A stretch of 64,000 nucleotides of DNA from Eledone cirrhosa (Eukaryota), in the NCBI GenBank assembly GCA_964016885.1, contig OZ024744.1:59954001-60018000 (forward strand). Direction: 5' to 3'. A program made the translations under genes and the position numbers. Positions 3,836-61,057 of this stretch are shown in pieces (positions within the stretch are counted from its first letter, which is position 1; the number at the start of each line of letters is the position of its first letter). The notes below the pieces were generated by a model that was given only the letters and a program-made list of their open reading frames with translations, had not been told where the DNA came from and ran no database searches.

Positions 3836-4103
3836 GCACAGAAACACGAACGCATACACACATCACAAATTCAGACTGAGCTGAAGGTGGAACGAAGAAG
3901 AAGAAGCAGAGGAGGGGGATGAGGAATGAGGAAGGGCAAGAAGAGTGATGGGAAGGAGCAAGGAAGGGGATGAGGAGGATGAGGAGGTGTAAAAATAAAT
4001 ATACAATTATTTCAGTTATCTATCTCTAATACGTCAACATAGGACAGAAATTATGTATGTAAGTATATACGTATGTATGTATGTGTGTATGTATGTATGT
4101 ATG

Positions 4104-6074
4104 TTTTCTCTTTCTCTTAATTTCGAGTATATTTTTGACCGGCCACCTTCCTGGTGGCAAGGTTGTAAAAGAAAAGAAATTGTCATCCCTTGAATCGCAA
4201 GAATGTTTTGCAAATTATGAAGGTGCCAGCTATCGCAGCCATTTGTAGACTATGAATTAGGGAGCTGCGCTTTTTGTCCGCAAATCCAAGTTCAGTCATA
4301 CTTTGGTCCAAGCGGGTTGGTATATAACCCGTAGCTCCAATAATGATGGGTATGAAGCTAAAGGTGTATCTTGGATACTGGATTTGTAAACTCCTCATCA
4401 ATGGTCCGTAGATGTCCTCCTTCTCCTGTATTTTTCTGACAACGTTTACATCAAGTGGGCAGCTGATCTCCACAACAGAACACGTTTTCAATGTGTGCTC
4501 CCAAACTACAATATCAGGCCGGTTGTGCTTTAATTTGGTGGCAGTTTTTATTTTCAGGTTCCACCAGTATTCCTTAGTGCCATCTGTCTCAATATATTCT
4601 TCCTCGTTTGTTGTTAATTTTGTTTTCCGAAGTTCGTTCCAGATGGTTCTAGCTATTCCATCGTGTCTCATGGGGAGGTAGTAGCGAGATGACATTCTTT
4701 CGCAGCTGGCAACAATGTGGCTTACATCCTCGATCTTTGTTTTACATAGCCTACATTTATTGTCAGCTGCTGGCCCTCCTCTTTTGTGCAGCAGATATTT
4801 GGTAGGGAGTTCTTGTTCCTGTATTACATAGAGATATCCCTCAAGGTGTGATATCATAAACTTGTCGGAACTCCATGCCAGGCTTTTTGAGTGGTTTATC
4901 CCCTCTATAGTCTGTGTTTTACGCCTCAAGTATCCATGCACAACTTTTTGTGTAAATTGGTCAATTTTTTTATCTTGTTTGAACATTGAATAGGATTTTC
5001 CGATTTCTCTGGGTGAGAGATTTATATCAGGCTTTATTCCATATCTCTCCTCCAGATCAGTCGCTATTCTAATGATATTTCTTTTTTCATGCTCATAAAC
5101 CTGGGCAAGATGGTTGCCAACCTTTTTCCTCTGTTGAAAGTGTTGCTTCAGTGTTACTATCCGGATCTCATATGTTGGTAATATTGATTTTAGACCCCGG
5201 CCACCTTCCTTGCGTGAGAAGTATAGCCTATCCACATCACCATTGATGTTAAAGTTCCCAGTAACACTGAGAAGTTTTCGAGTTCTAACATCCATCTCAC
5301 TTAGTTCTTGCAATGACCAGTTCAGTAGGCCAAATGTTGGCGTTAGAATTGGCACAGCATAAGTATTGTGGGCAATGTATTTGTTGTATGCTGACAGTTC
5401 TGATGACCATATTTTCTTTACTCTTCTGAGGTATTCAGTTCTGGTTCTCTCCTTATTTATGGGTCCATCATATCTGACATTCTCATCCTGTCCAAGATAT
5501 CTGTAGTTGTCACCTGACTGCAGAGGTTGTATTGTCAGGCCGTTTATCTCCAGATTTCTAGAGGAGGGCACAGCTCTTCCACGTTTTACTGCCAAATATG
5601 CACACTTGGACTCACCAAATTTCATTTGATGTCTGTTGAAAATTGTGTAATGAGGTCCAATTGTTTCTTGATGTCATTGATATTTGGCCCATACAACTTC
5701 AGGTCATCAACAAAGAAAAGATGGGAGATACTTCTGGGCCCACTTCTTTGTCCACCTTGTTTCCTGAGTAGGTAAGATAGTGGATTCACTGAGAGAACGA
5801 ATAGTATAACTGACAAGCTATCACCCTGAAAGATGCTCTTCTGGTAATGTATCTTATCAGTCTTAACCTGCTCCTTCTCACCTCTAAGGATCAAATTGGT
5901 GTACCAGTTCTTGGTCAGGCGTTCAACAGCAGCTACCAATGGTTGTGGGACTTTAGCTAACTGTAAAGCCTTAATAATCCACCCATGAGGTACACTATCG
6001 AATGCTTTTTGATAGTCCAGCCATACGACAGTCATGTTTCTGCGATTCTTTGTTGTTTTTTCCTGAATCATTTT
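4104..6074 (-). mobile_element. R4/Dong-clade non-LTR retrotransposon family A, copy 1 (5'-truncated; RT, CCHC, restriction-like endonuclease)
   Basis: RT motifs WLDYQKAFDSVPH, FQGDSLS, HLFFVDDLKLY; CRLC...HIVASC; RHD; RPDIVV...VEISCP; 3' UTR hairpin gccacc/ggtggc; both junctions in (TACA)n. Confidence 0.93.
4183..6074 (-). pseudogene. RT-RLE polyprotein C-terminal part, split by a 1-nt frameshift near 5625
   Basis: ORF 5622..6239 (RT from KMIQEK) and ORF 4183..5625 join at FSTDIK/MKFGESKC. Confidence 0.88.
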
Positions 6075-6212
6075 GTTAGTTAGTATGTATGTATGTATGT
6101 ATGTATGTATGTATGTATGTATGTATGTATGTATGTATGTATGTATGTATGTATGTATGTATGTATGTATGTATGTATGGATGTGTGTATGTATATATGT
6201 ATGTATGTATGT

Positions 6213-6665
6213 AAGGGCAAAGGAGCTCTTAAGAGTCAATGGCCATCCAAAATCACCGGGAGAGATGACCCCTTAGCCTTTGTCAAGGCAGAATTCTTGG
6301 AGAAGGAAAACTCTGATATAACACCTTCAACCCTAATGGTATCCAATGATGTTGACTTGTTCTTCTTTTTGGTAAATATCATCTTGGTTAAGAGAGTGGG
6401 ACTGGCTTTGTGCAGTGCCATTGCTCACTATAAAAGCTTCACGGCACAGGCATTGCTTTATATATGGAGATCTCTCTGCACTTGTCGTCACATGGTACCA
6501 TGGGCCCAGCACTATGTGTCAATAATTGTCCAAGTGTAGTGTTTATACCAGAGTTTTCAAGTCGCTGGCTGGACTAAAAAGTCACACTCGTTCAGCGCAT
6601 CGGTAGGGGTTCTCCTACATGGATATAAAATAGTGGCCGTACTCGAAAACGAGTTGGCAGCCACC
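6213..6665 (+). mobile_element. Non-autonomous bipartite RTE-derived element family 1, copy 1 (5'-truncated)
   Basis: RTE-type 5'UTR motif ggagaaggaaaactctga joined to an RTE-type 3' end (actcgaaaacgagt hairpin, gcagccacc), then an (ATGT)n tail. Confidence 0.8.
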
Positions 6666-6696
6666 ATGTATGTATGTATGTATGTATGTATGTATG

Positions 6697-6760: not shown

Positions 6761-7059
6761 TTTTCTCTTTCTCTTAATTTCGAGTATATTTTTTTGACCG
6801 GCCACCTTCCTGGTGGCAAGGTTGTAAAAGAAAAGAAATTGTCATCCCTTGAATCGCAAGAATGTTTTGCATATTTTGAAGGTGCCAGCTATCGCAGCCA
6901 TTTGTAGACTATGAATTAGGGAGCTGCGCTTTTTGTCCGCAAATCCAAGTTCGGTCATACTTTGGTCCAAGCGGGTTGGTATATAACCCGTAGCACCAAT
7001 AATGATGGGTATGAAGCTAAAGGTGTATCTTGGATACTGGATTTGTAAGCTCCTCATCA
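6761..7059 (-). mobile_element. R4/Dong family A, copy 2 (3' ~300 bp)
   Basis: Near-identical to 4104-4400; flanked by (TATG)n. Confidence 0.93.
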
Positions 7060-7310: not shown

Positions 7311-7914
7311 CTATGTCAGGTCACCAGTTGGTGCTACTGGTAACATGTATCCCAGTACAACCTGTCTCATGGTCGGGTCGTTGGCGACTAAACTGGCAAC
7401 CCCACCAAGGTTTCTTGGTGAGGAGGGTGACTTTGGACATCCTGCAGGACTAAAAACAAAACCTGTCAAAGGGCAAAGGAGCTCTTAAGAGTCAATGGCC
7501 ATCCAAAATCACCGGGAGAGATGACCCCTTAGCCTTTGTCAAGGCAGAATTCTAGGAGAAGGAAAACTCTGATATAACACCTGCAACCCTGATGGCATCC
7601 AATGATGTTGACTTGTTCTTCTTTTTGGTAAATATCATCTTGGTTAAGAGAGTGGGACTGGCTTTGTGCAGTGCCTTTGCTCACTATAAAAGCTTCACGG
7701 CACAGGCATTGCTTTATATCTGGAGATCTCTCTGCACTTGTCCTCACATGGGCCCAGCACTATGTGTCAATGGTTGTCACAGGTGTAGTGTTTGTACCAG
7801 AGGTTTCAAGTCGCTGGCTGGACTAAAAAGTCACACTCGTTCAGCGCTTCGGTAGGGGTTATCCTACATGGATGTAAAGTAGTGGCCGTACTCGAAAACG
7901 AGTTGGCAGCCACC
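7311..7914 (+). mobile_element. Bipartite RTE-derived element family 1, copy 2 (full length)
   Basis: ctatgtcaggtcacc...gcagccacc; encodes remnant [19 protein letters not shown], resembling the zinc-finger-like C-terminus of RTE-BovB-type ORFs. Confidence 0.85.
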
Positions 7915-7919
7915 ATGTA

Positions 7920-10189: not shown

Positions 10190-10829
10190 CTATGTCAGGT
10201 CACCAGTTGGTGCTACTGGTAACATGTATCCCAGTACAACCTGTCTCATGGTCGGGTCGTTGGCGACTAAACTGGCAACCCCACCAAGGTTTCTTGGTGA
10301 GGAGGGTGACTTTGGACATCCTGTAGGACTAAAAACAAAACCTGTCAAAGGGCAAAGGAGCTCTTAAGAGTCAATGGCCATCCAAAATCACCGGGAGAGA
10401 TGACCCCTTAGCCTTTGTCAAGGCAGAATTCTAGGAGAAGGAAAACTCTGATATAACACCTGCAACCCTGATGGTATCCAATGATGTTGACTTGTTCTTC
10501 TTTTTGGTAAATATCATCTTGGTTAAGAGAGTGGGACTGGCCTTGTGCAGTGCCTTTGCTCACTATAAAAGCTTCACGGCACAGGCATTGCTTTATATCT
10601 GGAGATCTCTCTGCACATGTCCTCACATGGGCCCAGCACTATGTGTCAATGGTTGTCCTACCATGGGCCCAGCACTATGTGTCAATGGTTGTCACAGGTG
10701 TAGTGTTTGTACCAGAGGTTTCAAGTCGCTGGCTGGACTAAAAAGTCACACTCGTTCAGCGCTTCGGTAGGGGTTATCCTACATGGATGTAAAGTAGTGG
10801 CCGTACTCGAAAACGAGTTGGCAGCCACC
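10190..10829 (+). mobile_element. Bipartite RTE-derived element family 1, copy 3 (internal ~35 bp tandem duplication)
   Basis: Near-identical to copy 2; catgggcccagcactatgtgtcaatggttgtc occurs twice (about 10627 and 10662). Confidence 0.85.
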
Positions 10830-11012
10830 ATGTATGTATGTATGTGTGTATGTATGTATGTATGTATGTATGTATGTATGTATGTATGTATGTATGTATG
10901 TATGTATGTGTGTAGATATGTATGTATGTATGTGTGTATGTAGGTATGTATGTATGTATGTATGTATGTATGTATGTAGGTATGTATGTATGTGTGTATG
11001 TATGTATGTATG

Positions 11013-11995
11013 TTTTCTCTTTCTCTTAATTTTGAGTATATTTTTTGACCGGCCACCTTCCTGGTGGCAAGGTTGTAAAAGAAAAGAAATTGTCATCCCT
11101 TGAATCGCAAGAATGTTTTGCAAATTTTGAAGGTGCCAGCTATCGCAGCCATTTGTAGACTATGAATTAGGGAGCTGCGCTTTTTGTCCGCAAATCCAAG
11201 TTCAGTCATACTTTGGTCCAAGCGGGTTGGTATATAACCCGTAGCACCAATAATGATGGGTATGAAGCTAAAGGTGTATCTTGGATACTGGATTTGTAAA
11301 CTCCTCATCAATGGTCCGTAGATATCCTCCTTCTCCTGTATTTTTCTGACAACGTTTACATCAAGTGGGCAGCTGATCTCCACAACAGAACACGTTTTCA
11401 ATGTGTGCTCCCAAACTACAATATCAGGCCGGTTGTGCTTTAATTTGGTGGCAGTTTTTATTTTCAGGTTCCACCAGTATTCCTTAGTGCCATCTGTCTC
11501 AATATATTCTTCCTCGTTTGTTGTTGATTTTGTTTTCCGAAGTGCGTTCCAGATGGTTCTAGCTATCCCATCGTGTCTCATGGGGAGGTGGTAGCGAGAT
11601 GACATTCTTTCGCAGCTGGCAACAATGTGGCTTACATCCTCGATCTTTGTTTTACATAGCCTACATTTATTGTCAGCTGCTGGCCCTCCTCTTTTGTGCA
11701 GCAGATATTTGGTAGGGAGTTCTTGTTCCTGTATTGCATAGAGATATCCCTCAAGGTGTGATGTCATAAACTTGTCGGAACTCCACGCCAGGCTTTTTGA
11801 GTGGTTTATCCCCTCTATGGTCTGTGTTTTACGCCTCAAGTATCCATGCACAACTTTTTCTGTAAATTGGTCAATTTTTTTTTCTTGTTTGAACATTGAA
11901 TAGGATCTTCCGATTTCTCTGGGTGAGAGATTTATATCGGGCTTTATTCCATATCTCTCCTCCAGATCAGTCGCTATTCTAATGATATTTCTTTT
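11013..11995 (-). mobile_element. R4/Dong family A, copy 3 (3' ~1 kb, intact CCHC plus RLE frame 11093..11896)
   Basis: 267 aa ORF nearly identical to copy 1; both ends in (TATG)n. Confidence 0.93.
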
Positions 11996-12888: not shown

Positions 12889-13388
12889 TTTTTTCTTTCT
12901 CTTAATTTCGAGTATATTTTTTTGACTGGCCACCTTCCTGGTGGCAAGGTTGTAAAAGAAAAGAAATTGTCATCCCTTGAATCGCAAGAATGTTTTGCAT
13001 ATTTTGAAGGTGCCAGCTATCGCAGCCATTTGTAGACTATGAATTAGGGAGCTGCGCTTTTTGTCCGCAAATCCAAGTTCGGTCATACTTTGGTCCAAGC
13101 GGGTTGGTATATAACCCGTAGCTCCAATAATGATGGGTATGAAGCTAAAGGTGTATCTTGGATACTGGATTTGTAAACTCCTCATCAATGGTCCGTAGAT
13201 GTCCTCCTTCTCCTGTATTTTTCTGACAACGTTTACATCAAGTGGGCAGCTGATCTCCACAACAGAACACGTTTTCAATGTGTGCTCCCAAACTACAATA
13301 TCAGGCCGGTTGTGCTTTAATTTGGTGGCAGTTTTTATTTTCAGGTTCCACCAGTATTCCTTAGTGCCATCTGTCTCAATATATTCTT
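12889..13388 (-). mobile_element. R4/Dong family A, copy 4 (3' ~500 bp)
   Basis: Near-identical 3' end; flanked by (TATG)n. Confidence 0.93.
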
Positions 13389-15031: not shown

Positions 15032-15642
15032 TATGTCAGGTCACCAGTTGGTGCTACTGGTAACATGTATCCCAGTACAACCTGTCCCATGGTCGGGTCG
15101 TTGGCGACTAAACTGGCAACCCCACCAAGGTTTCTTGGTGAGGAGGGTGACTTTGGACATCCTGCAGGACTAAAAACAAAACCTGTCAAAAGGCAAAGGA
15201 GCTCTTAAGAGTCAATGGCCATCCAAAATCACCGGGAGAGATGACCCCTTAGCCTTTGTCAAGGCAGAATTCTAGGAGAAGGAAAACTCTGATATAACAC
15301 CTGCAACTCTGATGGTATCCAATGATGTTGACTTGTTCTTCTTTTTGGTAAATATCATCTTGGTTAAGAGAGTGGGACTGGCTTTGTGCAGTGCCTTTGC
15401 TCACTATAAAAGCTTCACGGCACAGGCATTGCTTTATATCTGGAGATCTCTCTGCACTTGTCGTCACAGGGTACCATGGCCCCAGCACTATGTGTCAATA
15501 TTTGTCACAAGTGTAGTGTTTGTACCAGAGTTTTCAAGTCGCTGGCTGGACTAAAAGGTCACACTCGTTCATTGCATCGGTAGGGGTTCTCCTATATGGA
15601 TATAAAGTAGTGGCCGTACTCGAAAACGAGTTGGCAGCCACC
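15032..15642 (+). mobile_element. Bipartite RTE-derived element family 1, copy 4 (full length), tail to 15978
   Basis: Near-identical to copies 1-3. Confidence 0.85.
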
Positions 15643-16245
15643 ATGTATGTATGTGTGTATGTATGTATGTATGTACGTATGTATGTATGTATGTAGGTAT
15701 GTATGTATGTATGTGTGTATGTATGTATGTATGTATGTATGTATGTATGTATGTATGTATGTATGTATGTATGTATGTGTGTATGTGTGTATGTATGTAT
15801 GTGTGTATGTATGTATGTATGTATGTATGTATGTATGTATGTGTGTATGTATGTGTGTATGTATGTATGTATGTATGTGTGTATGTATGTGTGTATGTAT
15901 GTATGTGTGTATGTATGTGTGTATGTATGCATGTATGTATGTGTGTATGTATGTGTGTATGTATGTGTGTATGTATGTAGGTGATGAGGGAAGGAGTGAG
16001 GCATAAGGGAGAAGGCCTACGGCGATGATATGTGATGAAACATGGGATAGTGTTTAATATAAAATCGTGTAACGCCTATGTGTGTATATGTGTGAGTGTA
16101 TATATGTATATGTGTGTATATATGTATGTGTGTGTGTATGTATATATGTATGTATTTATGTCCATGGATATATTTGCATATTTGTATATGTAGAATTATA
16201 TATATCATACACATATACATATTTATTTAAACAGATATATAGACG

Positions 16246-23922: not shown

Positions 23923-24573
23923 GGTGTGATCGGACATCTTTTTGCTCGCTCCCTTAAGTCTCTTTATTTACCTGTCATAAATCATTTATTGTAAATTGTT
24001 GTTGTTGTGTAAGGGAGATAAGCCCTTGGACTTTGCCCTGTGAAGGGGAAAGTATAGTATTTGGGCCAAAAGGCCCAAATATTTTAACTTTATTTAAAAT
24101 ACAATTTAAAAAAAACAAAACATGGTGGAGCCACGCCTCCCAAATTCGTCTGACAGCGGTTTAAACGTTAAGGCGAATAACTCTGCTCGTCCCATAACAA
24201 ATATTTGTTTCTACTTTTGGCACAAGGCCAGCAATAATCCCAGTATATTACTGGTACTTTATTTTATCGACCCCGTAAGGATGAAAGGCAAAGTTAACCT
24301 CAACGGGATTTGAACTCAGATCATAAAGGGCGGCAACTCTATGCTGCAAAGCATGACGTCCGACCCTCTACCGATACTGCCAATAATGAAACCAACACCG
24401 CATTAGGCAGTATCGCCAACAGCAGCACCAACAATAATGAGAACAACAAGAGCAGCAACAACGACAACACCAACAACAACAATGAAAATTCAAATATCAA
24501 GAAAAATGACAACACCATTAACAGCAGCAACAACACCAACAGCAACAACAACGACAAGAACAACGACAACAAT

Positions 24574-24608
<35 letters not shown>

Positions 24609-25791
24609 AGACAACACCAACAGCACCAAGGACAACAACAAGAACACTTTCGCTGCCGCAGCAGCCAAGAAAAGGCTTTAACATGGATTTGACAGACAAG
24701 GAGACAAAGTTGGCCCAGGCATGGAAGCTCATCAAACAGGAGCAAACCTGGGCCAACTTAACTGTCACAGCAGAGGCCATAGAAGCGGTGGAGAGGAGAA
24801 CCCTGGTCTTCAGATGCTCTACCAAGCGGGCAATGCGATCAGTGGAATTCCCACTCACGAGTTCTATAGAGGATTAGTGGAGGGCAAGTGCGATGACGCA
24901 CTCGGAGAAGCTTTGGGCCTCGACGAAGTCGAACTGACCAGTCTGTACCGTAGGACTTTCGAGCTGGGGACGATGGACAATTTCCAGAAATCCCTCGCTT
25001 GGCAGTGCTACCGGCGTCATTGCCGGTTCGGGATAAACTCTACAGGCACGGAAGTGCTGTCAGACGGACCTGCCCAAGATGCGCACAGAACGACGAAAAC
25101 GTTCTGCACGCACTTGTCCAATGTCCGTGCATTACTAACTTGTAGAGTTATGTCGAACAGCTACTGTCGCGTGTGGAACGAATCCGGCTATCGGCCGAGT
25201 CCATAGGGAAGATCGACCCGCCGCCTTCCTTAGGACAGGAAGAGCAGGAAATGTTCCTCTTTCTGGTGGCAGTTGCGAAAGAGGTTATATGGTGGACCAG
25301 ATTAAAAGGACTGAAGACAGACACTTTTCTCTTCGGCCAATCCCTCATCAACTTCTTCAAATTTCACCTGGAAAGAAAGGTGAGGGTGGAGAGAGAAGTG
25401 CTGCCCCCCAGTACATTTGCTAAAAGGTGGATGAATGTGGCGAGAATGGCTCGTGTGAATGGGCCTACTCTGACCATGCGCCTATAGGCTAGCTAACTTG
25501 AGGAGAGGGGTGCTCTCCCTGGGTGCCCTAGAAGCGCAGGGTGGTTCAGGATTGGTGGGGTACTCGAGTCACCCCAGGGTCGTCCACCCCCTATCGGGGA
25601 ATTTATTTTGTTATATTTATGCATAGTTTATTTTATATATATATATATATATTTATTTTTATTTTTTATATCTTCATTGTTAAATTAGTCTTGCCATTGT
25701 GCACTTTTACTCGACCTTATTGTAAACCCCCACTGTCCCTGTCTTTGTATTGTCCCCTACATGTCGGCCCTTGTGGCTAATAAATGAAATC
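23923..25791 (+). mobile_element. Tx1/L1-clade element 1, internally deleted (5'UTR, ORF1 start, ORF2 3' end, 3'UTR); SINE inserted at 24203-24383
   Basis: ATG 24122; putative ORF1 remnant MDLTDKETK...VERRTLVF; ORF2 end FYRGLVEG...DNFQKSLAWQCYR...AKEVIWWTRLKG...TMRL*; aataaa at 25779. Confidence 0.8.
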
Positions 25792-25812
25792 ATTATTATT
25801 TTTATTATTATT

Positions 25813-27345
25813 GGCGACCTACGTAGCAAATCGTATCATCGTGAGCTCCGCAAAGGTTTGTTGTTTTCGTTTGTTTAAAATTGCCATTTATGGAAAAATT
25901 TTGTTGTTATCTGTTTATAAGGTCACAAAATTTGCTTTCGGAAAAGGACACTCAAAAAGATTGGGGCCTTGAGCCCAAAATTTAAACTTTTATAATTATC
26001 AAACAAAAAATTTCTTTGAAAAATCATGGACGACTCACAGCCACACCTTCCTCTCAAACTAACACATCACACCGACACCACCATTGTAAATATTACCACG
26101 TTTACCACTAAAATTATAAGCAGTAGCAATAATTTAAATTTGTCTCAGGCAGACATTCATTTCCCGCCATTACCAATGACTGCAGGTGTTGAAGCCGCCA
26201 CCCCCACACCACCACAGCGACAACAGAAACAAAAGAAAAAATTTGGCGGACGTCTACTGCAACTGGCAACAGAACGGGAGAATTCCCAGTTCTGTGAGCC
26301 GAGGAGCCGAGGAGCTGTGGCATTGCTGAGAAAGGATCCGAACAAGGGGGATAACATAGATAATTTCCGGCCCATAACTCTGCTAAACACAGAGTTCAAG
26401 ATTTTGGCCAAGGTGCTAGCAAAGAGGTTGGCGCTTGTCGTTGGTGGTCTGGTGGGAGAGGCGCAGACATGCGCCATTCCCGACAGATCCATCCACGACA
26501 ACCCCCACCTCATGCGATACATCGTGGAGAGGGTAGCTAAGGAACCTGGCACGGGTGGGTCCTTGATCAATTTAGATCAGTCGAAAGCTTTCGATAGGGT
26601 CGACCATCGTTACCTAGCGGCAGTCCTGAGGGCGGCTGGCTTTGGGCCCGTCTTCAGAGGCTGGATCGCTGCCATGACGGTTACCTTTCGGAACCGTTCA
26701 ACATCATGCGCTCGGTCCGCCAAGGATGTCCCCTCTCGTCCCTCTTGTACGTATTGACTCTCGAGCCATTACTGCACAAACTGGAGACGTTGAGAGGGGT
26801 CCCGCGCGAACTAGGATACGGAAGATCCGTGTCAGCATATGCGGACGATGTCACCATAGTGGTGTCGAACGCCAAACACATCGAGGCGATCGGCACTACA
26901 CTCAGAGAATACGAAGCGGTGACAGGAGCAATGATCAACCAGGAAAGGTCAGTAGGCCTGCAGCTCGGCACCTGGAAAGGCAGGTCCATGCCGTCCAACA
27001 GCGTCGTCGGGCGCTGGACGGACGGACCGCTTAGATTGCTAGGGGTCTGGTTCGCTTCGGACCTCCAGACAGACAAAAACTGGGACGAGGTGACGAGCAG
27101 CGTGGCTTCTCTCACCTAGAAATGGGCCGAGAGAAAGCTATCCCTGAAAGGTCGAACGGAGGTGGCTAACGCGTATATCGCGTCCGTCATCTACTACCGC
27201 CTGACCGTCGTACCTTGTCCTAAGCCCCGCCTGACTGTGCTGGAGCGTTTGCTCTTTCGCTTTTTGTGGAAGGGACGCGCTCCGATGGTTAGGCGGTCCA
27301 TCTGCTGTCAACACCCGATACGCGGAGGGATGGGAATGCCGTGGC
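25813..27345 (+). mobile_element. Tx1/L1-clade element 2 (5'UTR and ORF1 start fused to RT)
   Basis: NFRPITLLNTEFKILAK, NLDQSKAFDRVDH, SVRQGCPLS, SAYADDVT; frameshifts and stops. Confidence 0.9.
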
Positions 27346-28960
27346 TTCGGGCCCGTTTTTAGAGGCTGGAAAGCTGCAATGCACAGCGAAATCTGCTCGA
27401 TTGTGAGGGTGAATGATCATCTGTCGCAGCCTTTCAACATCATGCACTCGGTCCGTCCCTCATGTACGTACTGGCCCTCGAGCCGTTACTGCACAAATTG
27501 GAGACGATGAGAGGTGTCCCACACGAACTGGGATGCGGGAGATCCGTGTCAGCTTACGCCGACGATGTCACCGTGGTGGTGTCGAGCACCAAACACGTCC
27601 AGATGCTCGGCACCGCTCTCAAGAAATACGAAGCGGTGACAGGAGCTACGATACACCAGGAAAAATCGGTGGGCTTGCAACTCGGCACCTGGAGAGGCAA
27701 GTCCGTGCCGTCCGACAGCGTCGTGGGGCGAGGTGACGAGCGAGGTGGCCTCTCTCACCCAGAAATGGGCCGAGAGGAGGCTGTCTGTGAAAGGTCGGGC
27801 GGAGGTGGCGAATGCAAAGATCGCGTCCGTCATCTGCTACCACCTGACCGTCGTACATTTCCCCCGCCCAACTCTGACCAAAATGGAGCGCCTTCTCTTT
27901 TCTCTTCCGCTTTTTGTGGAAGGGACGTGCTCCCATGATCAGACGATCCATTTGCTGTCAACACCCGTTTCGTGGAGGATTAGGCATTCCGTAGCTGATG
28001 ATGCGCAAACATGCGCTGACGCTGCGATATCTCTGGTGCTTCCATGATGGTGAACAGGTGAGGTCGCCGTTTGCCAATCGCGCTTTCCCCAGCTCATCTC
28101 CTTGACGGAGCTGCAGTCCTGGATCAGAAAAAGACCGAGGGATAGCGCTTGGAAGCTGGAATGTCTCCAAGCGCTCACCGCCCTCTACCAGCTGGCGTTC
28201 TATAGAGGGCTAGTGGAGGGAAAGAGCGACGACGTTCTCGGGGAGACCCTGGGCATCGAAGACGATCAGCTGTTCGCTCTCTTCAAGAGAACTTTCAGAC
28301 TGGGCCCTGTGGACAACTTCCAGAAATCCAAGGCTGGCAGTGCCACCGTGGAGCGTTGCCTGTTCGGTATAAGCTCTACAGGCACGAACGTGCTGTCAAC
28401 CGAGCCTGTCCGAGATGCGCACATGGCGACGAAACCGTCCTGCACGCACTCGTTCAGTGCCCGAGGATTGCTGACTTGTGGAGCTATGTCGAACAGCTGT
28501 TGTCGCGTGTAGGGCGGATCCGGTTATCGACTGAGTCCATTGTGCAGATAGCCCCGCCATCCTCCTTTAAAGAGGAGGAAGGGCAGGCAGTTTTCACCTG
28601 CCTGGTGGTCATGGCGAAAGAGATTGTGTGGTGGACAAGGCTGAAAGGGTGAAGACTTTCACTTTCATCTTCGGCCAATCCCTGATTAACCTTTTCAAGT
28701 TTCACTTGAAGAGGAAAATCAGGGTGGTGAGGCAAGTGCTGTCTTCTAGTAAGTTTGTTGAAAGGTGGGTGAAAGTGGTGAGTCTGGTCCGAGTGAACAG
28801 GCCCACTCTGAGTATACGCCTGTAGACTGAGGAGTGGGAAAACTGAGAGAGGGCGCTTGCTCTGGTGGTCAGGGTGGCCGTGGTCTTTTGTGTGGTTTTC
28901 ACGAGTGACCCTCGGAGGTTTCCTCCTTTTTGGGGAATTTTTGTTGTTTGAATTTTATAT
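27346..28960 (+). mobile_element. Tx1/L1-clade element 3 (RT to 3'UTR, degenerate)
   Basis: SAYADDVT; CPRC...ETVLHALVQC zinc knuckle; ends TLSIRL*. Confidence 0.9.
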
Positions 28961-29231
28961 AATCTCTACTGTCCCTAAGACCTCAGCGCCACCTGGGGGG
29001 GGGGGGGGGGGTTAGCACCCACTTTCAAAACCTCTGTCCTACACTGATATCCTAACAAGAATTAGAGGTCTCTCACTCCCGATAGTCTAACCGCGCGCTC
29101 GGCACCAAACTGTGTATGTGCATGTCTCCATACACACATACACACATACATACATACATACATACACACATACATACATACATACATACATACATACATA
29201 CATACATACATACATACATACATACATACAT

Positions 29232-29410
29232 GGTGGCTGCCAACTCGTTTTCGAGTACGGCCACTACTTTATATCCATGTAGGAGAACCCCTACCGATGC
29301 GCTGAACGAGTGTGACGTTTTAGTCCAGCCAGCGACTTGAAAACTCTGGTACAAACACTACACTTGTGACAATTATTGACATATAGTGCTTTGCCTTTGG
29401 TACCATGTGA
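29232..29410 (-). mobile_element. Bipartite RTE-derived element family 1, 3' fragment
   Basis: Reverse complement of ~15465-15642; (CATA)n on both sides. Confidence 0.88.
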
Positions 29411-30330: not shown

Positions 30331-30917
30331 GTACAACCTATCGCATGGTCGGGTCGTCGGCGACTAAACCGGCAACCCCGCCAAGTTTACTTGGTGAGGA
30401 GGGCGATTTTGGACACCCTGCAGGACAAAAAACAAAACCTGACAAAGGGCGGAAGAACTCATAAGAGTCAACGGCCACCCAAAAGTGTGTAAATATGTAT
30501 ATACACATGTACATATGTATGTATATGTATAAGTGTATATACATGGGTGCATGTGTATGTATATACGCGGAGATATAGAAATCTTGGGTTGGACACCGGA
30601 TCGCGCTGTTAAACCACTGGGAGTGAAGGACCCCTAGCCTTCGTCACGGCATTCTTCTAGAAGGCAACTCAGGAAACTGGGATAACTCCGATATAAAACC
30701 TGGGGCTCAGTAGTTATCGATGATATTGATCTTTTCTTCTTTCCCGGTTATAGCTACTGTCGCTCAGAGTGGGATTGGCTCAGTGCACAGTCTTTCCTCA
30801 CTTTAAAAAATATCTTCATGCACAGGCATTGCACGATAGAATTAATAAATAATTATTCATAATGGTATAATGTGCAATGGCCATACCCGATAATGAGGGG
30901 GCAGCCATCATCATCAT
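30331..30917 (+). mobile_element. Bipartite RTE-derived element family 2
   Basis: Diverged homolog of the family 1 leader; ends gagggggcagccatcatcatc then (TATG)n; preceded by (TATG)n. Confidence 0.75.
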
Positions 30918-31010
30918 GTGTGTATGTATGTATGTATGTATGTATGTATGTATGTATGTATGTATGTATGTATGTATGTATGTATGTATGTATGTATGTA
31001 CGTATGTGCG

Positions 31011-31447
31011 TTCTTCTGGTTTTATAATTTCAGAAATTTTTGCCAATAGAGAGAGAGTTGGTTTCTAACATAAACACAAGACTCTCTCATTGGAATTTAC
31101 ACAACATTAACTAGGTAGGTATGTCTGCATGCCTGCATGCATGCATGTGTGTGCAGGTATGGATGTTATTGTATGTGTGGATGTGGATGTGGATGTGTAT
31201 ATTTAGAGGCAGACATTTTGGAATATTTTACATATTTTTACTGTTCCATTAATGGATTGTACTTGTAGTTTCCTAACTAGTTGTGTTCTTTCTATTTCTG
31301 TGAAACCCAGTTTCTCAAGATTTGTATTGAGACAGTTACTAACATACCCCAGTGCCCCAATAATCACAGGCATAAATCTGATGGTGTAATCAGGGTGGAG
31401 TATCTGTAGATTAATCATCAGTTCTGCTTAAATATTCTCCTTTTCTT
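31011..31447 (-). mobile_element. R4/Dong family B, 3' fragment
   Basis: NLQILHPDYTIRFMPVIIGALGYVS; 3'UTR matches 60835-61057; ends in (ACAT)n. Confidence 0.88.
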
Positions 31448-32137: not shown

Positions 32138-32139
<2 letters not shown>

Positions 32140-32544
32140 GTTTGGGACCACACATTGAAAACGTGTTCTGTTGTGGAGATCAGCTGCCCACTTGATGTAA
32201 ACGTTGTCGGAGAAATACAGGAGAAGGAGGACATCTACGGACCATTGATGAGGAGTTTACAAATCCAGTATCCAAGATACACCTTTAGCTTCATACCCAT
32301 CATTATTGGTGCAACGGGTTATATACCAACCCGCTTGGACCAAAGTATGACTGAACTTGGATTTGCGGACAAAAAGCGCAGCTCCCTAATTCATAGTCTG
32401 CAAATGGCTGCGATAGCTGGCACCTTCAAAATTTGCAAAACATTCTTGTGATTCAAGGGATGACAATTTCTTTTCTTTTACAACCTTGCCACCAGGAAGG
32501 TGGCCGGTCAAAAAAATATACTCGAAATTAAGAGAAAGAGAAAA
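32138..32544 (+). mobile_element. R4/Dong family A, copy 5 (3' fragment)
   Basis: KTCSVVEISCP...KICKTFL; (CATA)n on both sides. Confidence 0.93.
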
Positions 32545-34699: not shown

Positions 34700-36210
34700 G
34701 ACAGTCATGACCTTAGCCGTTTCTGCCCCAGTAGACCCATAAGGAGTAGACCTCCCACCATAACCTCAATGGCAAAAACGACTCCATGGGAAGGTGGATT
34801 GGGTGGACCAAAGCCACACGGACCCCCCGAAACAATGATCAGGTAAGAAAAATGGTCGCGCATGCAATAGGGGCTAGTATTAAAACTACCATAACGGGCC
34901 ACATATTCAAATTCAACGAGAAGATCTACACCCAAATGGGGGAACAGCCATTGGCGTCAGCATAGCTGGTGACGTTGCCAACCTTTTTATGGTGTGGTGA
35001 GAAAGGAGACTCAAAGATCTCCTTGATGAGAGCTCCATAGACCTCATCATGTACTCTCGTTACGTAGACGGTATTAATATAGTAATAAGGGCACCCCCAC
35101 AAGAGAGTACTACCAAGTATGATTTAGAACGTAGCACAATGGAAAGCATCCAGCAGATAGCTAACTCCATACACCAGAGTATAACTGTAACTATCGACTA
35201 CCCTTCCAAACACCCTAACTGTAGACTACCTGTATTAGACATGGAACTCTGGATTAACACTATAGACGAGAGGGCCCACATTCTCCACTCAGACTACGCT
35301 AAACCCATGGCTTCCAAATACCTGATATTCAAAAACTCAGCAATGTCCAGTAGTGCTAAGTTTAATATTCTGATCGCAGACTTGGTACGAGTGATGAAGA
35401 ACGTGTCCCGCATGTGCGACCCAACAGAAATGGAAAGACACATCCAACACTTCATAAACCGCATGCAGTTCTCTGGCTACAACCAAAGAGACAGAATCAG
35501 AGTATACAAAGGAGCCACAGAGAAATATAAGACCCTCTTAGAACTGGACATGAAAGAAATTTTCCCATTATACAGGAGCAAATCATGGAATAGCTTATAT
35601 AGGACTAAACATAAGATAGGGAAAGACACCTCGTGGTACGACAACCAGAGATACCAGAGTGTCATGTTCGTGGACGCTACCCCTGGAAGGAAATTAGCTA
35701 ACCAATGTAGAAAGGCCCTGAGAAAGACCCACTTAAAGATTAAAATGGTAGAAAAGCCAGGAACTACCATAAAATCCCTGATAAGCAAAACATACCCTTT
35801 TAAGGAAACCCACTGTACTAATAGGAAATGTATTATATGTAAAGTAAACTCCCAGATAAACTGTAAAACTAGAAACGTAGTCTATAGCATAAGATGTACA
35901 GAGCGCACTTGCAGAAACATAACAACAACATACAGAGGCGAGACAGTTCGTAGCATAGGAGAAAGGATAGACCAACACTAGGGGGAACTAAAAGGACGAA
36001 AAAACGGTTCAGTACTATAAGAACACGCCAGACAACAACATGATGGTAACATAGACAACAAAGAAATTAAAATAATATCTAAACATAGAAATGACCCAGC
36101 AGATAGACTAATCAGAGAGGCCAGTGAAATAGAACTTAGAAGGCCAAAGCTAAATAGAAAAAATGAATGGAATAACAACAACACCCAAACAAAAAATACT
36201 GACTTAAGAG
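34700..36210 (+). pseudogene. Penelope RT/GIY-YIG coding remnant (longest frame 35049..35981)
   Basis: YVDG instead of YVDD; stops at ~34998 and 35979; upstream frameshifts. Confidence 0.85.
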
Positions 36211-39358: not shown

Positions 39359-39399
39359 ATATATAGTTGTGCCCTCATCAATAAATCTAAAATTGAATG

Positions 39400-40410
39400 A
39401 CTTGACTATTCAATCTCTAGAGTCAGGTTATAACTTTAAGTATGTTAGATAAGACGAGAATGTCAGATATGATGGACCCATAAATAAGAGGAAAACCAGG
39501 AATGAATACCTCAGAAGCCTAAAGAGAATATGGTCATCAGAACTCTCTGCACAACAAACAGATCACCCACAATACTTTTGCTGTTCCCATGCTAATGCCG
39601 ACATTTGGCCTTCTGAACCTCTCATTATAAGAACTGAGCGAAATGATGTAAAGACTCACAAGCTGCTCAGCGTTACTGGAAACTTTAACATCAATGATGA
39701 TTTGGATAGGCTATATTTCTTATGCAGGGGCCTAAAATCCACAGCATACGAAATCCGTATAGGAACACTGAAACAACATCTTCAACAGAAGAAAAAATCA
39801 GCAGCCATCTTGGCCAAGTTTATGAGCATGAAAATAATATTGTTAGGATAGCCACTGATCTAGAAGAAAAACAGGAAATAAAATGATACAAATGTTTCTC
39901 CCATGAACTTTGGAAGACTCTACTTAATGTTCGAACATTTAAAAAAAAATAGAGTATTTCACTGAGAAGGTTGTATATGGGTACTTGAGACGATAAACAC
40001 AGACCATATATAAACCATGGATAAATTATATTAAAAGCCTGACATGGAGTTTTGACAAGTTCATAATATCCTACTGTGAAGGATATCTCCCTGCAATCCA
40101 GGAACAAGAAATCCCCACCAAGTACCTACTGCACAAAAAAGGAAGGACATCAGTTGACAATAAATGTTGGCTGCAAAAAAGAAAGATTGAAGATGTTAGC
40201 CACATTATTGTCAACCGTGAAATAATTGTTTCTACTTTTGGCACACGGCCAGCAATTACCCAGTACATTACTGGTACTTTATTTTATCGACCCCGTAAGG
40301 ATGAAAGGTAAAGTTAACCTCGGCGGGTGTCTTCTTGTTACTACCTCCCCATAAGGCATGATATGATAGCTAGAACGACCTGGAATGCATTACGGAAGAC
40401 AAAAATAGAA
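39400..40410 (+). pseudogene. Older decayed R4/Dong family A-related fragment, SINE at 40222-40328
   Basis: DENVRYDGPINK, IWSSELSA, QEQEIPTKYLLHK, YYLPIRHD. Confidence 0.85.
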
Positions 40411-40554
40411 ACAAGTAGGGATTTTCTAATCCATCATAAGCATACACTTACTTACTATCCTTTATGCTAATAGCTTATTTTCATATAATCATATGTATTA
40501 AACAGTAATTTCTAAAATATTTCATTAGTACTTTGGAGTGAAGAGCTTAAATTT

Positions 40555-59227: not shown

Positions 59228-61057
59228 GAAGGGCGACTCTATTTTCACTGATAAAATAGAATGTAACGGGGGTATATTTCAAGGAGACAGTCTCTCTGTG
59301 TTACTATTTATTGTCATTAAACCCTCTGTCCTTTCTGTTCAAGAAATGTGAAGGATACATAATTGACTCACAGGAGGACAGAAATACAAACCTAACCCAT
59401 AACTTTTTGTGGACGACCTGAACATAGATGGGATGAAGAAAAAACATTGACCTTTTTACAACGTTCTCGAAAGATATAGGAATGAAGTTTGGCCAAGATA
59501 AATGTTCCTATATGAATATATCCTATAATGGTATTTGTAATAAGGAACGTGTAACCAGATAATATTACACCAGATTAAGAAAGATATGGTCATCAGAACT
59601 CTCTGTGCACAGTAAAACAGTGGCTCACAATGTGTTTGCTGTGTCTGTCCTAACACCAACGTTTGGAATACACGAGTGGACGATAGACGAAATCTGAGCA
59701 ATTGATGTTAAAACTCGAAAACTTCTAAACATCATAAACTTCCACATCAACAGTGACATAGACCGCCTCTACTTGAAACGTAAGCAGGGAGGCAGAGGCC
59801 CAACATCAGTCCAGACAACATTTGAGTGTCACATTACATCCCTTCGACATCTACGAACCACCAAGTATAAGAGCCCATCTATTGTGTAAGTCTGTCTGCA
59901 CGAGAAAGAGATCATGAGAGTTGGAAAGGAACAGCTTGAGAAATACTCCCTGTGTGATAATCAAAAACTCACACCCAGGGAAATTGCCCAGCAGTACCGC
60001 AGTGAATCCATGAGTGAAAAGCTGCATGCTTATCAGCAAAAAAATCATGCATGGGTATGTTGCTAAGAAGCTCCAGAGTGAGAGTAATATAGATAAGGAA
60101 AGTAGTCTATCTTGGACCAACAATCGCTATATTGGCTCTCACTTTGAAGGATATGCTTTTGCAATCTAAGAACAGGAAATCAACACGAAATACCTGATTC
60201 ACAAAAGAGACAGGAATGCAGGCAAAACACCTAGATGTGACAAGTGCAGACTCTGCAGATTTAACATCGAAGATGTCACCCCTGTCATAAGCAGCTGCCC
60301 AAAGATGTCATCACAGTACTATCTACCTATGAGGCATGGTGTGGTGGCCAAAACTCTGTACAATGCAATTTATAGAAAAGATAGCCCCGATAATAAACAC
60401 GTTAAAAGCTACAGCACTGTGGAAGACATACACATACATAATATGAAAGAGTACTGGTGGAATGTTCCAATAAAAAAACCCAATAAAATGCAGGTATAAC
60501 AGACCAGATATAATGATATGGGACAGGGAAAAGAAGGCATGCATGGAGGTGAAAGTTAGCTGCCCAGCAGATGCCAATATAATATCAAAGATTAGCGAAG
60601 AAGAGAATATCTATGCAGAACTAATGAGAAATCTGCAGATACTCCACCCTGACTATACCTTCAGATTTATGCCTGTGATTATTAGGGCACTGGGATATGT
60701 TAGTAACTGCCTCAGTACAAATCTTGAGAAACTGGGCTTCACACAAACAGAAAGAACATGACTAGTTAGGAAATTACAAGTACAATCCATTAATGGAACA
60801 GTAAAAATATGTAAAACATTTCACAAATTCTGCATGTACACATGTATAGATACAAAACATATGCACATGTACACGTAAAACACAAAACATACAGATCCAC
60901 ACATACAATGACATCCATACCTGCACGTACGCACACACACACACGCATGCAATGCAAACATACATATCTACATAGTTGATGTTGTCTAAATTCCAATGAG
61001 AAACCTGTTAGAAACCAGCTCTCTTTCTATTGGTGAAAGATAATAAAGCCGGAAGAA
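59228..61057 (+). mobile_element. R4/Dong family B, 5'-truncated, decayed, ends in (CA)n
   Basis: GVYFKGDSLS-like, FVDDL, IWSSELS, CRLC, YYLPMRH, RPDIMIWD...EVKVSCP. Confidence 0.88.

Follow-up and report, generated by a model that had tools for sequence, protein, structure and literature searches.

Dong of Bombyx mori, DongAg, DongBg, the ostracod elements Dong1/2 and the R4 clade combine RT and a restriction-like endonuclease (RLE) in one ORF, as do the retrotransposons described here, termed family A. Excerpts of PMC7998251 and PMC3812793 describe a Myb/SANT-like N-terminal region without zinc fingers and insertion into microsatellites for Dong/R4, features that recur in family A, the Myb/SANT-like region as a weak prediction. 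Dong proper inserts in (TAA)n and family A in (CATA)n, so that this feature of Dong in the strict sense is not shared. Taken together, passages of several sources, among them PMC3812793, PMC4640811, PMC7998251, PMC8967140, PMC3124438 and PMC5035012, name (TAA)n alone for Dong and ACAY for the APE-type element Waldo. The ACAY class of Waldo (WaldoAg1/2, WaldoFs1; R1 clade) includes ACAT, the repeat occupied by family A, and the sequence-only reading of this DNA had correctly pointed to this likeness (excerpts of PMC3812793). Waldo elements have an APE endonuclease and insect hosts, whereas family A has an RLE. Because the family A protein lacks an APE domain, a target common to the two would be convergent. 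A review has called the mechanism of microsatellite targeting by Dong poorly understood (PMC3812793, in part).

The closest solved structures are those of R2Bm and R2Tg, which share with family A the RT-thumb-linker-CCHC-RLE order and an apparently upstream-biased target logic. R2 proteins have N-terminal C2H2 fingers and a 28S rDNA target, whereas the family A protein contains no CxxC motif in aa 1-400, that is no N-terminal zinc finger, and its target is periodic. Identity between R2 and family A proteins is about 17-20%, and family A lacks the defining features of the R2 clade. According to excerpts of PMC10499050, R2Bm contacts a motif at -34 to -22 through N-terminal domains, a Myb among them, and reads -6 to +1 through its RLE; it can do without the downstream sequence, and 3' homology is optional for it. 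Dong-R4 elements of O. vulgaris have been described as abundant and recently active, with 5 families and 1,129 insertions (PMC13282606, in part), and a full-ORF consensus was reported for O. bimaculoides (PMC9115989, in part). No target sequence was found for these octopus families, the word "target" being absent from PMC13282606 and its one supplement. Full-text searches, judged mostly by title and start of the abstract, brought up no description of a CATA or CTTA target for the R4/Dong group; Repbase and Dfam, as well as subscription journals and the supplements of bioRxiv papers, lay outside them and may record it.

The window, a 64-kb stretch of Eledone cirrhosa DNA, was read from its sequence as holding five family A copies with a CATA-type repeat on both sides, and BLAST and inspection of the flanks confirmed all five. 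Copy 1 (4104-6083, minus strand; its end had earlier been placed at 6074) is a 5'-truncated RLE LINE comprising aa ~537-1169 and the 3' UTR. It contains the second half of the RT (5622-6074, minus strand; Pfam RVT_1, E 8.5e-15) with the catalytic FVDD at 5703-5714, a CCHC zinc knuckle (4702-4755, minus strand) equivalent to C980, C983, H992 and C997 of the intact ORF, the restriction-like endonuclease domain (4186-4587, minus strand) with HNRPD at 4513-4527 followed by E1075 and K1091, and a 3' UTR (4104-4182, minus strand) that terminates in ...GAGAAAA. The (CATA)n target tracts on its 3' and 5' sides lie at 4052-4103 and 6084-6213, both read on the minus strand. This copy is dead: its coding part begins within the RT (aa ~537), and a shift of 1 bp near 5670 breaks the frame. 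Copies 2 (6761-7059), 3 (11013-11995) and 4 (12889-13388), all truncated and on the minus strand, and copy 5 (32138-32544) on the opposite, plus strand also have CATA flanks at both ends, and are 97.5-98.6% identical to copy 1 by BLAST within the window. The 3' junction was ...GAGAAAA followed by CATAC in four of the five copies and ...GAAAAAA followed by CATAC in one, and all five had sense-strand CATA repeats upstream. The proteins had been described as differing by a few residues, which holds for copies 2-5 (1-4 differences each from the intact ORF) and fails for copy 1, where 23 of 630 aligned residues differ, one of these being a junction artefact. Copy 5 ends early through a stop at codon 1166, close to the C-terminus.

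The same arrays hold family B, an RTE-related element of ~600 bp that resembles the 5' UTR (69%) and the C-terminal zinc-finger end of the RTE LINE at L045, runs in the opposite direction to family A and has looser AT/GT/ATGT flanks. Its copies in the window are at 6213-6666, 7318-7917, 10190-10830, 15036-15643 and 30331-30916 on the plus strand and at 29231-29390 on the minus strand. An older A-like copy, 75% identical, lies at 39365-40414; both its true ends are missing and it is interrupted by a short repeat of ~100 bp at 40227-40327. The window also contains a 1.77-kb (ACT)n/(GCT)n trinucleotide array of 589 units (591-2357), decayed RT-bearing LINE fragments (24298-28652, RVT_1 matches at 26023-27116), which we take to be L1/Tx1-like, and an ORF of 326 aa (35001-35981) that has no Pfam match and is presumably Penelope-like.

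Recovery of a full-length copy had been proposed in the sequence-only reading, and was achieved by walking upstream from genome matches. The complete unit of ~4.22 kb starts with A(1-4)TGGCGACC and consists of a 0.63-kb 5' UTR, a single ORF of 1,169 aa and an 83-nt 3' UTR. From the 41 top-scoring matches to the family A 5' end, 20 were fetched. Nineteen of these were full length, with ~97-99% identity to L035, the reference copy; five (L089, L093, L095, L097 and L098) had an uninterrupted 1,169-aa ORF, these five being 5-17 residues apart. The supposed youth of the family agrees with these identities and with the surviving intact ORFs, in a sample in which young copies are over-represented because the best matches to the queries were taken. 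The full-length starts A(1-4)TGGCG (L093:397-412) resemble a putative YY1-type initiator motif, and an imperfect internal duplication lies within the 5' UTR. A stem-loop was predicted in the 3' UTR of the intact copy L093 (z -2.97). No Rfam ribozyme was found in the 5' UTR region, and folding of the 5' end was not unusual (z -0.13 and -1.49). The genome that holds the window is 3.0 Gb in size. Contigs from four public runs cover family A along its length; in two of the four, depth was high and biased towards the 3' side, and the element's terminus was followed by CAT.

The intact protein matched Pfam RVT_1 with E 2.7e-23, and the C980/C983/H992/C997 knuckle and the C-terminal HNRPD...E...K were conserved in the ORF. 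No APE match and no protease family was found by Pfam, and a protease of the NeSL type is thus absent. A single ORF with RT, CCHC knuckle and PD...E...K endonuclease motif and without APE is the architecture of RLE-type non-LTR elements, and family A has neither an N-terminal zinc finger nor a Ulp1 protease, as is the rule in R4/Dong. The fixed 3' end and the variable 5' truncation are the signature of TPRT. All five sequence matches in PDB were R2 proteins. For the AlphaFold model (pLDDT 88) the seven best Foldseek matches were all R2 structures, with Z 32.4 and rmsd 4.9 for 788 residues aligned over 318-1169, LINE-1 ORF2p being close behind (Z 29.5); the overall fold is thus predicted to be R2-like. 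Residues 12-85 were modelled as three helices (pLDDT 86). Comparison of this domain with Myb/SANT proteins gave many low-scoring rows (best Z 5.8; Atlas score 0.84), including TRF1 (rmsd 4.0, 65 aligned) and Zeste (rmsd 2.5, 64 aligned), and no Foldseek match at E<=0.001. These values are consistent with, and do not prove, a predicted Myb/SANT-like domain at the N-terminus, where a Myb-like region has been described for R4/Dong (PMC7998251, in part). Family A and a second CATA family (family C, below) do not agree in helix 3 of the Myb-like domain, so there is no simple target code.

Among distinct fetched copies, the 3' end was followed by CAT in 61 of 73 cases and by CATACAT in 52 of 73. An exact count over the whole genome, confined to undiverged ends with either CAT or a non-C base next to them, gave 3,131 family A 3' ends of the first kind and 377 of the second, over 3,500 in all. 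Of the first 30 exceptions, 25 were CATA-rich downstream, mostly 1-2 bases out of phase. At these 30 loci 13 of 21 visible left ends reached the CATA threshold upstream and two more scored 0.48; several of the remaining left ends were internal rearrangements and one had the repeat inverted. For the 5' side, 89 left alignment ends were collected, and removal of four internal breaks (L038 twice, L039, L051) left 85 true junctions. CATA-rich DNA was found upstream of 33 of 34 full-length copies and at 45 of 51 true truncation junctions, together 78 of 85. In a background sample of twenty 10-kb stretches at round coordinates (200 kb), perfect (ACAT)n made up 0.09%, (AT)n 3.3% and (AC)n 0.56% of the bases, and a random position had a 0.27% chance of a CATA-rich upstream 24-mer. 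The association with CATA is therefore not due to chance.

Orientation was also constrained: of 70 copies with both junctions, 68 had the upstream repeat in the sense (CATA-wise) and 2 in the antisense (TATG-wise) direction, and none had pure AT or pure AC upstream, although (AT)n is 35 times commoner than (ACAT)n in the background. The residence in (ACAT)n that had been read from five copies thus extends to the genome and is strand-specific, and the junction analysis that had been suggested established a fixed ...AA/CAT phase across 3' ends. Numerous non-repeat 5' flanks, the finding that was to count against the claim, were looked for at the 85 junctions and not found. For family A, a broad preference for repeats of alternating purines and pyrimidines was rejected; that looser habit was seen in family B. 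The upstream repeat was inverted, (TATG)n, at L022 (L022:1255-1285) and L211, though the downstream flank was CATA. Mixed CATA/TA flanks occurred at L036, L071, L093 and L097.

Six copies (L086, L044, L043, L092, L014 and L096) had only 0-4 CATA-like bases at the 3' flank and 47-172 bp of CATA upstream, with a target duplication of at most 1-5 nt. Since these copies leave the repeat within 0-4 bases downstream and keep it upstream, (CATA)n is a target and no obligatory tail, and a mere 3' tail was ruled out. Tract lengths differed between the two sides, with medians of 65 bp upstream versus 31 bp downstream (Wilcoxon p 8e-4, a value that is somewhat generous because a few sampled copies are tandem duplicates), and the longer tract was upstream in 50 copies and downstream in 18. 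Purity of the repeat was ~0.83 out to position -36 and dropped to 0.6 by +17. This asymmetry suggests that upstream DNA binding contributes to targeting; alternatively, it could reflect repeat expansion at the 5' junction. CATA spacers free of A occur between tandem family B elements, and such spacers host A at L011 and L094. A search for the empty site of L012 gave no orthologous contig in the four runs, the flank itself being an old repeat.

The CATA target is not confined to family A. The window contains a piece of family C, an older CATA-targeting R4-like family, at 31010-31445 (minus strand), followed by a CATA tract, and a decayed copy at 59235-61050 (plus strand), followed by (CA)n and CATA. 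Family C has 4,357 first-look candidates genome-wide and is 53% identical to family A in amino acid sequence over RT-RLE. At almost every one of 30 loci its 3' end reads ...CCAGAAGAA followed by CATAC; most truncated copies had CATA upstream. At L180:1-4375, three pieces of two Dong-like families (D1/D2), flanked by (TAA)n, directly precede a CATA tract and a family C copy; these TAA-flanked pieces are 30-32% identical to family A and form a separate branch. The nearest named protein to family A is from Argonauta hians (52-55% identity). A first metagenome scan with a single protein yielded 0 relatives among 155 pattern matches, and an alignment-based scan yielded 17 loci related to family A, each a single contig, so that the evidence for any one element is thin. 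CATA was found at both ends of two loci and at the 3' end of one, with the AA/CATAC junction in two of these three. CTTA was found at both ends of one locus (L197), on the 5' side only of two and on the 3' side only of three, two of the last being near-identical; eight of the 17 had no flanking repeat. The relatives at 50-52% identity lie in CATA or, in the neighbouring branch, in CTTA. The repeat of the CTTA-flanked relatives (metagenome contigs L195-L200) is one base away from CATA.

In an 83-row RT tree, 62 R4-like proteins were separated from 21 outgroup rows, APE-bearing and in one case Ulp1-bearing, with SH 0.999; the group containing A and C also had 0.999, and two rows had been dropped for RT coverage. 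Family A grouped with the TAA-flanked Dong-like elements and with moth and ladybird proteins. The assignment to an RLE-type, R4/Dong-like element made in the sequence-only reading fits both architecture and tree, the trees being built without a named R4, Dong, Rex6, R2 or Hero sequence; a position of the RT outside the RLE clades, which would have spoken against that reading, was looked for in these trees and not found. In a 29-row IQ-TREE rooted on two R4-like proteins, families A and C formed a clade with every CATA- or CTTA-flanked element at UFBoot 100; support was 99 for A plus the three metagenome elements flanked by CATA, 91 for the CTTA group and only 70 for C joined to that group. CATA occurs on both main branches, with few tips labelled, and is therefore likelier the ancestral target. 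Sequence comparison thus indicates that the CATA target is likely old in the A/C subclade and CTTA a later shift. A recent target switch in family A was ruled out, since family C and the metagenome relatives share the target; CATA specificity is no recent invention of this family.

Taken by analogy with R2Bm, these data make it quite probable that family A inserts by protein-directed TPRT into pre-existing (CATA)n in one orientation, and the enzyme, as inferred from sequence, would be an RLE with ACAT specificity. The Myb-like domain would dock on repeats some 20-35 bp upstream, and the RLE would cut the (TATG)n strand opposite A/CAT at a fixed phase. The freed 3'-OH would prime cDNA synthesis on the family A 3' UTR, perhaps aided by a few CAU read-through bases, and early termination of this synthesis would produce the 5'-truncated copies. 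Because each insertion would leave CATA on both sides, arrays such as that at 4.1-16 kb of the window could build up. The upstream-biased flanks of family A appear to match the logic of R2Bm, with the Myb-like domain acting alone. Fixed phase and orientation would likewise be expected if the endonuclease were loose and read-through (CAUA)n transcripts annealed to nicked (TATG)n DNA; copies residing in CATA would give read-through RNA carrying CAUA, and 3' homology improved the priming precision of R2Bm in vitro (excerpts of PMC10499050). We consider such homology guidance unlikely, because downstream annealing does not explain the six copies with almost no 3' CATA and long upstream tracts, and R2Bm does not need 3' homology (same excerpts).

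Still less probable is that the repeat is made by the insertion itself, slippage or template jumping of the RT adding (CATA)n to one or both ends at short CAT seeds. Upstream tracts that are long and pure even where the downstream flank is unique or degenerate would agree with this, as would L047, where a short CACATACAT links an RTE fragment to A. It is contradicted by the A-free CATA spacers between family B elements, by the many flanks that are degenerate old repeats with substitutions, by the several copies without a 3' repeat, and by the joint switch of both flanks to CTTA in relatives (L197). Unspecific insertion, with copies surviving in or recombining into microsatellite-rich DNA, is what excerpts of PMC3812793 suggest for the Waldo-A/B elements that lie near CA repeats in Drosophila. 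For family A this was rejected as largely refuted and the least credible of the explanations, given the fixed phase, the 68:2 orientation and the lack of any copy behind the 35-fold commoner (AT)n; the youngest intact copies, too, obey the CATA rule. Protein-directed insertion into existing repeats is thus the reading that we prefer.

At the level of the genome the association of family A with CATA is real and has good support. The kind of system is known; the target, CATA, is apparently new and shared by an entire subclade. Whether this amounts to an undescribed and widespread R4/Dong subclade that moved from (TAA)n to tetranucleotides, (CATA)n being ancestral and (CTTA)n derived by one base, and in whose intact members, of 1,169 aa and without zinc fingers, a Myb-like domain bound upstream reads the repeat, is in our estimate evenly balanced. 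If true, TAA, CATA and CTTA would form a natural series in which target recognition by RLE elements could be mapped and reprogrammed; the parallel with APE-type Waldo would be one of convergence. Intact ORFs, thousands of fixed-phase junctions, TAA relatives in the same genome and CTTA relatives elsewhere make the target-setting domain testable in a finger-free RLE element. The value as an insertion tool that had been suggested is doubtful because the CATA target is dispersed and multicopy, and family A is less attractive than R2 in this respect. In genomes with such families, insertions may interrupt marker loci made of CATA repeats. For the genome itself, targeting by family A offers an explanation of its long mixed retrotransposon arrays.
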